UHGV virus genome: UHGV-2000170
Length of the DNA: 42,855 nucleotides
Direction: 5' to 3' (one strand)
Origin: a virus
Shown here: in pieces, positions 36,001-42,000 of the stretch
Position numbering within the stretch: position 1 is the stretch's first letter
How the letters are laid out: each line of letters begins with the position of its first letter
Made by a program: the position numbers

Positions 36001-39000
36001 AGATAACAGCGGTCCCGAAACTGGCTGTATATGACCCGACGGTGCAGTTTGAGTTCTGGTTCTCGGAAAAGCGGATTGCGGATATCAGGCAGGTTGAAAC
36101 CACAGCCCGCTATCTTGGCACGGCGCTGTACTGGATAGCTGCCAGTAGCAATATTAAGCCGGGTTATGATTATTACTTTTACATCCGCAGCGTGAATACC
36201 GTTGGTAAATCGGCATTTGTGGAGGCCGTCGGCCAGCCGAGTGATGATGCATCCGGCTATCAGGATTTTTTCAAAGGCGAGATAGGGAAAACCCATCTGG
36301 CTCAGGAGTTGTGGACGCAGATTGATAACGGTCAGCTTGCGCCTGACCTGGCTGAAATCAGGACGTCCATTACGGATGTCAGCAATGAAATCACACAGAC
36401 CGTCAATAAGAAACTGGAAGACCAGAGTGCAGCGATCCAGCAGATACAGAAGGTTCAGGTTGATACAAATAATAACCTGAACAGCATGTGGGCTGTGAAG
36501 CTGCAGCAGATGCAGGACGGACGCCTTTATATCGCGGGTATTGGTGCCGGTATTGAAAACACCCCTGACGGCATGCAGAGTCAGGTGCTGCTGGCGGCAG
36601 ACAGGATTGCGATGATTAATCCTGCGAATGGCAACACAAAGCCGATGTTTGTTGGGCAGGGCGATCAGATATACATGAATGAAGTGTTCCTGAAATATTT
36701 GACGGCTCCCACCATTACCAGCGGCGGTAATCCTCCGGCATTTTCCCTGACACCGGACGGGCGACTGACGGCGAAAAATGCGGATATCAGTGGCAGTGTG
36801 AATGCGAACTCCGGGACGCTCAATAACGTCACGATAAATGAGAACTGTCAGATTAAGGGGAAACTGTCCGCCAACCAGATTGAAGGCGATATTGTCAAAA
36901 CGGTCAGCAAGTCTTTCCCCCGCACGAGCACTTATGCCAGCGGCACCATTACGGTCACGATTAGTGATGATCAGAAGTTTGACCGACAGGTCATGATCCC
37001 GGCTCTGCTGTTTAAAGGAAGCAGGAAGGAACATTATGGCAGTAATAATCAACAGTCTTATGTTTATTCTGTATGCCGTTTGCAGGTAACGAAAAACGGG
37101 ACAGAAATTTTTAACCAGTCAACAACGGATGCTCCGGCGGTTTTTTCTTCCGTTATTGATATGCCTGCGGGGCAGGGAACGTTGACGTTAAAGTTTACGG
37201 TCTCTTCTTCAATGGTCAATAACTGGACACCGACAACCAGTATCAGCGATTTGCTTGTTGTGGTGATGAAGAAATCCACCGCAGGTATCACGATTAGCTG
37301 AATTTTATAACCCATATACGGGCGCCAGAAATGGCGCCTTTTTTATTGCAGAAAAGAGAGAGGTAATTATGCGTAAAGTTTGTGCAGCCATGTTGTCCGC
37401 AGCCATCTGTCTGGCCGTATCCGGTGCGCCTGCATGGGCGTCTGAGCAGCAGGCCACGCTGAGCGCGGGGTATCTTCATGCCCGGACGAACGCTCCCGGC
37501 AGCGATAATCTTAACGGGATTAACGTGAAATACCGTTATGAGTTTACGGACACGCTGGGAATGGTGACGTCATTCAGCTATGCAGGAGACAAGAATCGCC
37601 AGCTGACCCGTTACAGCGATACCCGCTGGCATGAAGATTCCGTGCGTAACCGCTGGTTCAGCGTAATGGCGGGGCCGTCTGTGCGCGTGAATGAATGGTT
37701 CAGCGCGTATGCGATGGCGGGTGTGGCTTACAGCCGTGTGTCGACTTTCTCCGGGGATTATCTTCGCGTAACTGACAACAAGGGGAAAATGCACGATGTG
37801 CTGACCGGAAGTGATGACGGTCGCCACAGCAACACGTCTCTGGCGTGGGGGGCTGGCGTGCAGTTTAACCCGACCGAATCCGTGGCCATTGATATTGCTT
37901 ATGAAGGCTCCGGCAGTGGCGACTGGCGCACTGACGGTTTCATCGTGGGTGTCGGTTATAAGTTCTGATTAGTAACACAGCTTTATTACAGCCCGCCGGT
38001 TCAGGCGGGTTTTTTTTGTGGGGGGAATATGGCAGTAAAGATTTCAGGTGTACTGAAAGACGGCACAGGAAAACCGGTAGAGAACTGCACCATTCAACTG
38101 AAAGCCAGACGGACCAGCAGCACGGTGGTGGTGAACACGGTGGCCTCTGAAAATCCGGATGAAGCCGGTCGTTACAGCATGGACGTTGAGTACGGGCAGT
38201 ACAGCGTTATTCTGTTGGTGGAAGGATTCCCGCCATCCCATGCCGGGACCATCACCGTGTATGAAGATTCTCAACCGGGGACGCTGAATGATTTTCTCGG
38301 TGCCATGTCGGAGGATGACGTCCGGCCGGAGGCACTGCGTCGTTTTGAACAAATGGTGGAAGAGGCAGCGCGTCATGCCGGGGAGGCGAAGAAGAATGCC
38401 GGAGAGGCAGAGACGTCCGCGAGGAATGCCGGCATATCAGCCAGTCAGGCAGAAAAGAGCGCTGCACATGCTGACACTTCAGCAGGATATGCATCGGAGT
38501 CAGCCCGGCAGGCGGCAGAAAGTGCAGCCTCAGCAAAGCAGTCAGAGGAGGCGTCCTCGTCCTCGGCCTCTGAGGCCGCTCAAAAAGCCAGTGAGTCATC
38601 ACAAAGTGCAGCAGAAGCTGAATTGTCAAGAAAGACGGCAGAAAGTGCAGCCGGTAATGCAGCCAGGGATGCAACGACCGCAGCAGAAAAAGCCCGGGAG
38701 TCAGCAGAAAGCGCACAGTCAGCGGAACAAAGCAGGATAGCGGCGGAAGACGCCGTAAACCGAATCCCCACCGTGGTGGGACCTCCCGGGCCAAAGGGAG
38801 AACCGGGGCCCGCGGGTCCTCAGGGGCCGAAGGGAGATAAAGGAGAGCGTGGCGACACCGGTCCTGTCGGGGCAACCGGTGAGCGGGGACCGGCAGGTGA
38901 TGCTGGTCCGGCAGGCCCGGCAGGCCCACAGGGACCGAAAGGAGAAACAGGTGCGGCTGGCCCGGTGGGGGCAACCGGACCTCAGGGACCGAAGGGCGAC

Positions 39001-42000
39001 CCGGGGGAGACACAAATCCGTTTTCGTCTGGGGCCGGCGAGCATTATTGAGACAAACAGCAATGGCTGGTTCCCGGGTACAGATGGTGCGCTCATCACCG
39101 GACTGACCTTTCTTGACCCCAAAGATGCCACACAGGTTCAGGGGCTGTTTCAGCATTTGCAGGTCAGGTTTGGTGACGGGCCGTGGCAGGATGTTAAGGG
39201 GCTGGATGAAGTGGGCAGTGATACAGGCAGAACAGGAGAATGACATGAATATACTAAAAAAACTTATGCAGCGTCTGTGTGGTTGCGGAAAGCATGATGG
39301 CCGTGAACACGTGCAGTCGCTTACAGCACAACTGCGTCTGGGGCCGGCAGACATCCTGGAGTCCGATGAGAATGGTATTATTCCGGAGCAGGACAGGGTA
39401 ATCACGCAGGTGGTGATACTGGATGCAGATAAAAAGCAGATACAGTGCGTGGTAAGACCGCTGCAAATCCTGCGTGCTGACGGGGTGTGGGAAAATATTG
39501 GCGGGATGAAGTAACCCGACAACTTCACAAAAACCGGAGTCCGGCTCCGGTTTTTGTGTTGCAATGTAAGGCAGATGTTTGTTACAGCTATTTAAGTCTG
39601 GAGTTCAAATTAAAATAGGGAGTTTTGTTATGCCATTTACATTTTATTTGTCGTCCGAGAATCAATTGTCAATACAAAATCTTGAAGCTTTGCAAAACGC
39701 AGCCAGAGCGAATTATACAGGGAATATTATAATAGGAGACAGGCAGTTGTCTGTTCGTTATCAGAGCGCTATGGACGCTTTTATTGTTAATCCTGTTCAG
39801 GGGGAACTGTATTCAGGTCTTAATAATAGTGTTTTGGATGATGTTATCAGTCTGGCTGACGTTATTGAGAGTCGGTTGAATGGAGGAAGCTCATTTCTTG
39901 ATGTATTCGACAGATATATGATACAAACAATGCAAACCATGATGAATGGTAATGAGAGCGATCTTGAATCGTTAGCGACTCGATTATCTTCAAGTGCTTT
40001 TTCGGTTTCTCCTGAGGATATATCCTGTATACCGGAGGCATTGCAGTGTCCGATTACATTGGAAATTCCAGAGCGTGGTGTTTTTCTTAGAAACTCTGAA
40101 GGATCCTCAGTGTGTAGTTTATATGATGAAAATGCTCTCTCTCGTATAATTAATGATGGGGGGCATCATCCATTAAGTAGGGAGCCAATAACAGCATCAA
40201 TGATTGTAAAGTCTGAAGATTGTATATTTGACGCCTCAAAGGGAAACTTCATTATAAAAGATAGTTAAAATATTTCAAATGAAACAATGTTGGCTTTCGA
40301 TAGTTTATATGAAAACACCACAGGCATTCGGAGAGTGAAAAGCTGCCTGTGGTGATAAAAATATGATACGCGAGTTATTCTTCACAAGTCAGAAAGAAAG
40401 CAATGAAGGTAAGGAATATAAGGAATATTATGTCTCAAAATACAGGACACTCTTTAGTGTCGCATCGTTCTGAATTTCAGCACGTAATGACTGAAATACG
40501 TAATAATCCTGTAAAATTTCTGGAAGAGAATTTAATTCTTAATCCACAGTGCTATGCCCATCATGATGAGATATCTTTACAGTTAATATTACAAGAGAGG
40601 ATGGCTTGTTAAGACTAAAAGAAATGGAGAATGATATGGCTGGTAGTGATTATATTCTGTTTACAGGTATGCGTGATACTGATAGTCCGGAACGTTTTGA
40701 TGCGCCTGCAGTTATAAGCTTGGGTAATCAGTGTATAAGCCTCCGGCGAAATGATATTTCTCAAACTATCCAGCAAAGTTCACCGTTATGGCTAACCAAT
40801 CAGCAAAGCGGCTGTAGTGTTCTTATTGTCCGCCATGGTTTATCAGAATCTGGAGAGCAGCAGTATTCAATGATACATATGCGCCCAAGAGATGGTAACG
40901 ATTTCATAGATGAACTTACGCCAGAGCTTTATGCTAATACTCAGGAGGTTTTGCTGGAGAGGGATATTCAGCGCACACTTGCTAACACCTTTCCCAATGA
41001 ACATCCGGAGGCCTTTATTTTGATTCCTTCGGAGGAAAAATTTATTGTAGATGGCAATTGCATTCAACTGATTGGTATTGGTAATGAGCAGGGGGAATTT
41101 GATTTTTACAGGCAAATTTATCCTGTGACAGGTGGAGAGCACCAGGTTGAAGCCTTGATGTGGACGCATTTACCTGCATGAAAACGTTCAGGAGCATTTT
41201 TTGTGGGTTATATCAGTCCATGACTTTTGCGACAGTTTCTTTAGATCGGGAATATCAAGTGGAGCGGCACAGCCTGGGTGAAAGATGCAGAAGCAGAAAA
41301 ACTGTTCCGGATCCGGGAGGCGGAAGAAACAAAAAACAGCCTGATGCAGGTAGCCAGTGAGCATATTTCGCCACTTCAGGATGCGGTAGATCTGGAGATT
41401 GCAACGGAGGAAGAGAAATCGTTCCTGGCCTCATGGAAGAGGTATCGTGTGCTGCTCAACCGTGTTGATACTTCCATAGCGCCAGATATCGAGTGGCCGG
41501 TAATACCTGCGTCATAGTTCGTAAATGTTCGTATGACAGGATGCTGAAAGGATGAATTAACGGCCAGATACACAAAAACTGGAGTTAATTTCCAGTTTTT
41601 TTTTGTTGTCATGTTAGGGTGATATTTGTTAGAAAAGTTTAGATAGGTTTGTTTTGAAGGTTGAAATGTATGTTATCGCCATCTTTTATAAATTTGGGAT
41701 GTTCATGGAGTGAAAGTCAAATAATGCAATCTTATCATGGAGGAACGCAAGATCTTATTAGTGTGGTATTAAGTAAAATTTAGTAACTTTATCCAGTGTA
41801 GTGGATTTGTTGCATGGATGGAGTTGGTAAAAAGTGGTGTGGCTGGCAATCCAGGCCACGTCACAGAAATGGACAATGCCGCTGAGAGACTGGCGAATGG
41901 CATACAGGCACCAGAAAAATTTCAGATATGACATAATGCCCATGCCAGAAGTTCCTTTTGCACCTCGCCTGTATTTATAGATAAACATAGAGTGAATGAA

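Follow-up and report, generated by a model that had tools for sequence, protein, structure and literature searches.

Collagen-like fibers encoded by prophages were described by Ghosh et al. 2012 (PMC3368898), who defined the architecture of EPclA (EHEC prophage collagen-like protein A) as PfN-PCoil-Col-PfC. EPclA is a trimeric dumbbell ~55-60 nm long, and for the recombinant protein (rEPclA) both the trimer and the collagen triple helix were shown by analytical ultracentrifugation, size-exclusion chromatography with multi-angle laser light scattering (SEC/MALLS), circular dichroism and electron microscopy (EM). PCoil, a trimeric coiled coil, and PfC are the trimerization modules; a PfC construct was a trimer by SEC/MALLS, and a Col-PfC construct refolded its triple helix rapidly after melting. 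The paper makes no mention of a small gene downstream of the fiber. Such a gene, an 89-amino-acid (aa) open reading frame (ORF) that holds PfC only, follows the fiber gene of short-tailed Stx2 phages, as in Sp5 (ORF67/ORF68, that is, ECs1228 and the next gene; PMC5155283), in 933W (L0121/L0122; AF125520) and in phi24B (gp61/gp59; bioRxiv 10.64898/2026.04.10.717836). Systematic deletions in Sp5 found the fiber ORF67 to be essential and immuno-EM placed it at the tail, while ORF68 was a non-essential 89-aa polypeptide containing a phage fiber C-terminus domain only (Mondal et al. 2016, PMC5155283). Here we analyzed this arrangement in the virus genome UHGV-2000170 (the window, 42,855 nt), where the side tail fiber gene stf is followed by an 89-aa ORF, hereafter the small ORF. 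The two genes constitute the standard distal side-tail-fiber module of the lambdoid phages of enterohemorrhagic and enteropathogenic Escherichia coli (EHEC and EPEC) and of Shiga-toxin phages, a pairing that is already in the literature. The feature is thus an ordinary one, and the main idea of an earlier reading made from the sequence alone (the sequence-only reading) was likewise already in print.

We compared Stf with the EPclA proteins domain by domain (Table 1). The gene runs from an ATG at 38029 to a TGA at 39241-39243, and RefSeq names its product 'prophage tail fiber N-terminal domain-containing protein'. The attachment domain, common to lambda Stf, matched PF08400 over residues 1-133 with 232.7 bits (Pfam cut-off 26.6). 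It is followed by the Ala/Ser/Glu-rich region, which contains internal 27-nt repeats (family D2 of our repeat search) and whose 117 aa agree in length with the PCoil of PMC3368898 Table 3, making it a putative coiled coil. The Gly-X-Y run is single and uninterrupted, and we counted 26 triplets (78 aa) where the sequence-only reading had given about 25. Residues 330-393 matched the whole 64-position model of PF06820 with 123.9 bits (cut-off 25). The primers used for the PfC construct in PMC3368898 have exact matches in the window at 39016-39034 and 39190-39207, so the trimeric PfC fragment of that study corresponds to Stf residues 330-393. All the sequence features of EPclA were therefore present in Stf: PfN, a low-complexity PCoil of ~116 aa, a single Gly-X-Y domain and a C-terminal PfC. 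In domain order Stf is like ECs2717 of Sakai Sp14 and ECO26_0887 of O26:H11 P02, and its length of 404 aa is that of ECO26_0887, a variant whose PCoil has 116 aa and whose collagen run has 78 (PMC3368898, Table 3). The commonest, 437-aa form of EPclA has 37 triplets (111 aa) in place of 26, and we noted no other difference of substance. The sequence-only reading had called Stf truncated; judged by its domains, it is instead a complete alternative fiber of the EPclA class, built on a lambda-type attachment domain. Given its near-identity to rEPclA, Stf is expected to be a trimeric dumbbell with a collagen triple helix. When the PDB was searched with the Stf sequence, the sole matches were collagen chains and lambda Stf residues 1-93 (9e7m/9mgh), and no structure of PfC turned up; the matching chain is a 94-residue 'Tail fiber protein' whose residues 1-93 aligned with Stf residues 1-93 (E 5e-53).

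The small ORF extends from an ATG at 39245 to a TAA at 39512-39514, and a single base (C, 39244) separates it from the stf stop codon; the coordinates and lengths first read for both genes were exact. Its residues 28-89 matched positions 1-64 of the 64 in PF06820 with 122.4 bits (cut-off 25), and it aligned with phrog_576 from end to end (1-89/89, E 3e-59). RefSeq holds the same protein as WP_001023457.1, 'phage tail fiber C-terminal domain-containing protein', and no NCBIfam model matched it. BLASTP aligned Stf residues 331-392 with residues 29-88 of the small protein at 24/62 identities (39%, E 2e-12), so the motif pattern that had been noticed in both proteins reflects similarity well beyond chance, with PF06820 in each. 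The small ORF is thus, at the sequence level, a true paralog of the C-terminal module of Stf, and the term 'duplicated tip module' was right in the evolutionary sense. The duplication itself is ancient. At the DNA level the only sizeable identity between the two PfC copies is the 14-nt stretch CGTCTGGGGCCGGC, and the copies are direct repeats, not inverted ones. We also compared the window pair with a divergent pair from another enterobacterial locus (L087, described below). Small-type PfC was 53% identical to small-type PfC and fiber-type was 40% identical to fiber-type, while small against fiber type gave 30-36%. Since the small-type copies are closer to each other than to the fiber-type copies, the duplication predates the split of these cassettes.

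The 27 residues that precede PfC in the small protein form a basic N-terminal extension (KK..R..K.H), and its motif M-x-I-[LF]-K-K-[LI]-...-L-x-G-C was also found in the 53%-identical homolog (P0225). A lipobox at the LCGC of this extension was considered and ruled out, the segment before it being charged (KK, QR) and not hydrophobic. An AlphaFold2 monomer computed from an 18-sequence alignment placed a helix at residues 3-11 followed by seven short strands, with a pLDDT of 57 and a pTM of 0.42; a Foldseek search of this model against BFVD returned zero matches at E<=0.001. The model was poor, and we dropped any inference from the fold. There is an in-frame alternative ATG at 39206-39208, 13 codons upstream of the small-ORF start and inside the end of stf, with AAGGGG before it. 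Some gene callers choose this start, which gives a 102-aa form (P0005, 102 aa), and the annotated start of 933W L0122 lies even further upstream.

To determine how constant the small ORF is, we examined 83 sequences that contain it (80 IMG/VR loci, two RefSeq loci and the window). The ORF was intact, with its ATG and stop codon, in all 83, which represented 55 nucleotide alleles. The stf/small-ORF junction GGAGAATGAcATG (GGAG-AR-TGA-c-ATG), in which the stf TGA lies between the Shine-Dalgarno sequence and the ATG, was kept in 73 of the 74 loci that had both genes. The exception (L035, IMG/VR UViG_2526164630_000034) carries a ~2.7-kb IS66-family element exactly at the junction. By pairwise Nei-Gojobori comparison of the 55 alleles, pN/pS was ~0.12 for the small ORF, with values of 0.10 in PfC and 0.22 in the N-terminal extension, and it was 0.25 for the last 79 codons of stf. 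Downstream of the small ORF we found an intrinsic terminator whose hairpin (39526-39558) folds at -24.8 kcal/mol (z -5.3). Taken together, these signals and their conservation indicate that the small ORF belongs to the phage backbone, is under selection and has a translation start of its own. Annotations should accordingly treat the 89 codons as a genuine gene, not as a pseudogene fragment, and the 404-aa Stf as complete.

The pair is widespread. A tblastn search of 50,697 phage records located the small ORF in 296, with 80-99% identity, among them 933W (L0122), VT1-Sakai (H0003), BP-4795, phage cdtI and lambda_2B8. The fiber-type PfC query also hit 296 phage records, at 597 places, or about two PfC copies per genome. 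The fiber and the small PfC were seen as a pair in 933W, lambda_2B8, AU5Stx1 and L087. L0122 of 933W is 92% identical to the small ORF of the window and has the same TGA-c-ATG junction, and the last collagen stretch and PfC of L0121 are ~92-95% identical to those of Stf. In other respects the fibers of short-tailed Stx2 phages are unlike the window Stf: they belong to EPclB, are 645 aa long, start with a different, podoviral N-terminus and contain a Pf2 repeat as well as two runs of collagen. The cassette is therefore common to the EPclA fibers of siphoviruses and the EPclB fibers of podoviruses (933W L0121). A third shaft came from an exhaustive profile search for PfC over 1.84 billion representatives, which gave only 98 matches, including the 79-aa small-type PfC P0225. 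Its locus, L087, comes from an enterobacterial assembly, and megablast against the E. coli genome set gave no match to it. There the small-type gene has a perfect AGGAGG Shine-Dalgarno sequence and shares 14 nt with the end of the gene for a non-collagen fiber of 212 aa. This fiber is myovirus-like, its N-terminal part resembling the tail fibers of Yersinia phage fEV-1 and of Vibrio phages, and its C-terminus is a fiber-type PfC. The small ORF thus always directly follows a fiber-type PfC, on three unrelated fiber shafts. In the same diverged lineage as L087, a decayed relative (L124) has a truncated fiber and a premature stop in the small ORF.

Several other matches touched on the distribution of PfC. 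The long multi-repeat profile matches P0237, P0245 and P0254 were discarded as CarboxypepD_reg or SprB beta-sandwich repeats. A metagenomic fiber-like protein of 565 aa (P0240; L128 3505-5202, Logan SRR17035117) has four tandem repeats of ~75 aa followed by a collagen run, and the second halves of the repeats matched PF06820 (E 1.6e-15); PfC-like units can thus be internal and tandem, outside enterobacterial prophages. A scan of genome contigs returned only E. albertii and a 725-bp contig labeled Xanthomonas pisi DSM 18956 (L089, NZ_JPLE01000138.1). The ORF on that contig is 92% identical to the E. coli sequence, and the contig is probably E. coli or phage contamination of the Xanthomonas pisi assembly.

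Lambda (NC_001416; orf-401/orf-314 and orf-194) has the same gene order, J-lom-stf-small downstream gene, and in the window the small ORF occupies the tfa slot. The two fibers share only their first ~120-160 residues: lambda orf-401 is 74% identical to Stf over the first 160 residues and is unrelated beyond. The distal fiber consists of Pf2 repeats in lambda and of collagen-PfC in the window. No BLASTP alignment between the small ORF and lambda Tfa was found at E<=100, and a Pfam scan gave no match to PF02413 (Tfa, Caudo_TAP) on the small ORF, so that its position alone is tfa-like. The gene is a fiber-tip paralog, unlike the Tfa-type chaperone of lambda. A Gly-X-Y triple helix joined to a terminal globular domain that trimerizes and nucleates the helix is also found in Bacillus BclA, the C1q family and streptococcal Scl. 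Sequence matches between these proteins and Stf were confined to the collagen part, with none between their head domains and PfC. To our knowledge, no gene for a protein of the BclA, C1q or Scl type is neighbored by one for a separate copy of the head domain.

We consider it reasonably probable that the small ORF encodes a separately translated accessory partner of the EPclA-class fiber knob, within a complete two-gene module. The lambda-like N-terminal domain of Stf would dock on the tail tip and be followed by the trimeric coiled coil and the 26-triplet collagen helix, and the C-terminal PfC knob would trimerize and nucleate the triple helix, roles that were demonstrated experimentally for near-identical proteins (PMC3368898). 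The small protein is a paralog of this knob with the 27-residue basic helical extension in place of a shaft. It is predicted to be made as a separate 89-aa polypeptide, with translation starting at a Shine-Dalgarno sequence of its own and coupled to stf through TGA-c-ATG, and its gene would close the late tail operon before the strong terminator; the translation start, the coupling and the operon-end position were read from the sequence and its conservation. The product most probably forms a PfC-type trimer that acts in trans on or with the fiber knob, as a dispensable, sub-stoichiometric accessory in fiber assembly or tip function, in the place that tfa has in lambda. The fiber knob ends in an acidic C-terminal tail and the small protein has no such tail, and the opposition of this tail to the basic extension is suggestive of a partnership. 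A more specific proposal, which we put forward only tentatively, is that the small protein represents a new type of fiber accessory that arose by tip duplication and not by recruitment of a Tfa. Its basic N-terminal helices may dock on the acidic knob tails, or it may co-assemble with the fiber PfC, and it may tune assembly or host range on O-antigen-bearing hosts in a manner invisible in plaque assays on K-12.

Several observations weigh against an accessory partner. Recombinant EPclA and PfC trimerize in E. coli without the small protein (PMC3368898). Sp5 with ORF68 deleted is still infectious on K-12 (PMC5155283), and the small protein is therefore not an essential chaperone. In the supplementary virion proteome of phi24B (bioRxiv 10.64898/2026.04.10.717836) there are two gp59-unique peptides, ADGTWENIGGMK and VITQVVILDADKK, with three peptide-spectrum matches (PSMs) each, against 2,267 PSMs for the fiber gp61; we take these figures as PSM counts from a table sorted on that column. 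The data appear in the supplementary table alone, the main text of the preprint mentioning neither gp59 nor gp60. Since the peptides were detected but are few relative to the fiber, the small protein of phi24B is made, yet it is not a stoichiometric component of the virion. With ~6 PSMs it is not a stoichiometric tip component, and the peptides could even be carry-over. The function, the trimer and the knob contact are predictions, and the AlphaFold2 monomer was poor. Finally, the alleles behind the pN/pS values are closely related and recombining.

The same facts could be accommodated if the small protein worked off the virion, with free PfC trimers released at lysis that bind the fiber ligand on debris or neighboring cells as a decoy or mask, or with some other service to the lysogen. 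The low abundance in phi24B virions, the dispensability for plaque formation on K-12 in Sp5, the conservation under selection and the lack of a shaft or tail-attachment domain would all fit such a soluble knob. We nevertheless regard it as unlikely: at 39% identity to the fiber knob a common ligand is not expected, the protein has no signal peptide and its N-terminus is charged rather than hydrophobic, and the strict adjacency and coupling to the fiber gene, seen with three kinds of shaft, agree better with a role alongside the fiber. A quite improbable alternative is that the small ORF is a silent spare tip which recombines into stf and changes the receptor-binding end. An 'intragenomic reservoir' for fiber variation was speculated for Sp5 ORF68 (PMC5155283), and the AU5Stx1 record (GenBank KU977419) names the gene 'atfT, alternate tail fiber tip'. 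The two PfC copies have their 14-nt identity, and recombination between the copies does occur, in rare rearrangements: a tandem duplication in which a 92-aa chimera with a small-type N-half and a fiber-type C-half is located between an intact stf and an intact small ORF (L090 2697-2975, GCA_005381265.1), which is the arrangement expected from an unequal crossover between PfC paralogs, and a collagen::small-PfC fusion at a contig edge (P0064). However, neither a start codon nor a Shine-Dalgarno sequence nor an N-terminal extension is required in a passive cassette, yet all three are conserved, and purifying selection is stronger on the small protein than on the fiber tip. The small-type lineage stays stand-alone even in the 53%-identical homolog. 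A fiber-type N-half joined to a small-type C-half, as such an exchange would give, occurred in none of the 269 proteins retrieved. Hybrids at the 14-mer numbered 0 against 33 exact parental matches in ~279 IMG/VR loci, a comparison of modest power. These two counts also speak against the suggestion that the small ORF is a leftover of tip exchange. A 76-nt hybrid query gave no usable answer in E. coli genomes because its two parental halves, 310 nt apart, were merged as one place. No invertase or crossover sites flank the genes; the window has no invertase gene and no recombinase ORF in 37300-42855, and the closest RefSeq genome has a frameshifted recombinase only beyond cif.

We considered it very improbable that the small ORF is read as an extension of Stf, by a programmed +1 frameshift or by bypass of the TGA, to give a minor isoform with two tandem PfC knobs. 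In its favor, the small ORF occupies the +1 frame relative to stf, the stf stop has a TGA-C context, generally a leaky one, and 65 of the 83 loci keep the small-ORF frame open over the 46 preceding codons. The phi24B authors also considered a gp61-gp59 fusion, as their protein database for mass spectrometry includes 'Fusion_6159_FS1/FS2' sequences, with the entry labeled 'Spike or just gp59?'. On the other side, 12 of the 83 loci have the frame closed 13 codons upstream, and L087, where the perfect AGGAGG is retained, has it closed two codons upstream; 44 open codons in a row would be met by chance with a probability of ~0.1. On our reading of the sequence, GAA-TGA-C offers no obvious +1 re-pairing for the P-site tRNA. 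We saw no shifty heptamer or +1 site at the window junction, and no frameshift signal was found for Sp5 ORF67/ORF68 (PMC5155283). In phi24B the gp59 peptides were ~400-fold rarer than those of the fiber. Finally, the small ORF might be a non-functional, decaying remnant of a tip duplication, a tip exchange or a cargo insertion, next to a truncated Stf. This view draws on the length of Stf, about half that of lambda Stf, on the tfa remnant and effector genes downstream, and on the 3'-truncated small-PfC fragments that flank nleG cassettes in other loci. It is scarcely credible, since the conservation data already contradict it: all 83 sequences have an intact ORF with the low pN/pS given above, and 296 phage genomes keep it at 80-99% identity, among them podoviruses of the 933W type without cargo at this place. 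Moreover, no domain of EPclA is missing from Stf, the junction with the cargo falls 3' of the small-ORF terminator, and the one premature stop was in the decayed prophage L124, whose fiber gene is truncated as well. The sequence-only reading had also offered a scar of the effector cargo as the origin of the small ORF, which fails on the same grounds, as the pair occurs without cargo in 933W (L0121/L0122) and the junction is ~70 nt further 3'.

Most Shiga-toxin phages, long-tailed or short-tailed, are decorated with fibers of this kind, as are the EHEC and EPEC prophages that carry effector genes, and the fibers therefore bear on the spread of stx and of type III secretion system (T3SS) effector genes from strain to strain. 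Among the conserved late genes of these phages, the small knob paralog is one of few without an assigned function. Its purifying selection, its constant pairing on three shafts and its place at the end of the operon, beside the cargo junction, make it a reasonable target for binding and host-range work.

Table 1. Features of the fiber module and the adjoining cargo in UHGV-2000170
Feature	Coordinates	Strand	Basis
stf, collagen-like side tail fiber, EPclA class, full-length, 404 aa	38029..39243	+	ORF table; PF08400, PF01391 and PF06820; RefSeq name
PfN tail-attachment domain, common to lambda Stf, aa 1-133	38029..38427	+	PF08400
Ala/Ser/Glu-rich region, aa 134-250 (~117 aa), corresponding to EPclA PCoil	38428..38778	+	read in translation
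Collagen triple-helix region, 26 Gly-X-Y triplets, aa 251-328	38779..39012	+	regex count; PF01391
Fiber-type PfC knob, aa 330-393	39016..39207	+	PF06820
14-nt stretch CGTCTGGGGCCGGC, identical to 39335-39348, encoding the RLGPA motif	39025..39038	+	repeat search, family D5
Hydrophilic 10-residue tail and terminal Glu after the PfC knob	39208-39240	+	translation
Shine-Dalgarno AGGAG, 6 nt 5' of the small-ORF ATG, stf TGA in between	39234..39238	+	sequence
Stand-alone small-type PfC gene, 89 aa	39245..39514	+	PF06820; phrog_576; RefSeq WP_001023457.1
27-residue N-terminal extension of the small protein: predicted basic amphipathic helix MNILKKLMQRL, then CGCGK	39245..39325	+	translation; AlphaFold2 model
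Bidirectional intrinsic terminator, perfect 14-bp inverted repeat, 12 nt 3' of the small-ORF stop	39526..39558	.	repeat I11; RNA fold
Backbone/effector-cargo junction (approximate, after GATGTTTGTTA)	39586..39587	.	alignment with locus L002
nleG-family T3SS effector gene	39630..40268	+	PF06416, E 3e-44
Lambda-type tfa remnant, last 77 codons	41278..41517	+	PF02413 positions 56-130/131; RefSeq pseudogene 'missing N-terminus'

Upstream of stf lie J (33819-37301) and lom (37369-37968). Downstream, the cargo junction is ~70 nt 3' of the small-ORF stop, beyond the terminator, and the order that follows is nleG, a frameshift-split hypothetical gene, the tfa remnant and cif, which is cut by the end of the window. 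For stf the G+C content is 0.59, for the small ORF 0.50 and for nleG 0.38, with a drop from ~0.50-0.59 to 0.33-0.42 across the junction. Unlike the window, 933W has no annotated effector cargo over the ~3.5 kb that follow the pair. The tfa remnant, 1.8 kb downstream of the small ORF, is 82% identical to lambda Tfa residues 115-191. The effector cargo had been proposed to have replaced both the distal fiber and tfa; the loss of tfa is borne out by this remnant, and the loss of the distal fiber is not, the end of Stf being complete. What the cargo replaced was a lambda-type tfa and not the end of this fiber.

A third small-type PfC fragment, 3'-truncated and with 73-76% aa identity, immediately precedes nleG, ~950 nt downstream of the intact small ORF, in locus L002 (6002-6148) and in about nine other loci (L004, L006, L010, L013, L026, L047, L055, L056 and others). 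The sequence upstream of nleG in these loci matches window 39590-39650, and the nleG cassette appears, from these alignments, to carry the small-PfC fragment as its left flank. This suggests that the 3' end of the small ORF and the tfa remnants may serve as homology arms for cargo exchange. The hairpin at 41571-41600, after the tfa remnant, is 77% identical to the part of the terminator at 39526-39555 after the small ORF, so that similar module-end hairpins bracket the segment with nleG and the hypothetical gene.

Other observations concern the cargo itself. The overlapping ORFs 40403-40612 (69 aa) and 40606-41181 (191 aa) correspond to one 257-aa gene that is intact in a different E. coli prophage, L002 (6984-7757), and the window copy looks frameshifted. 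No Pfam, PHROG or NCBIfam match was found for this hypothetical gene (40403-41181), which has a low G+C content and lies between nleG and cif; it may encode an uncharacterized T3SS effector. Window 41279-41477 scored 192 bits against Rfam RF02111 'IS009'. The match overlies the tfa remnant, and this candidate small RNA family thus coincides with a fragment of the tfa gene. In the closest RefSeq genome (NZ_CP148326.1; L001 11666-14367) the region beyond cif has more tfa fragments, the frameshifted recombinase and a TIR-domain anti-phage reverse transcriptase, and that prophage has deletions in the tail genes L and J that are not found in the window. A 19-nt sequence, AGAAATGGAGAATGATATG (40620-40638), which stands before the RefSeq start of the hypothetical cargo ORF, is 84% identical to the stf/small-ORF junction at 39229-39247, a likeness that could be due to chance or could be a recombination footprint.

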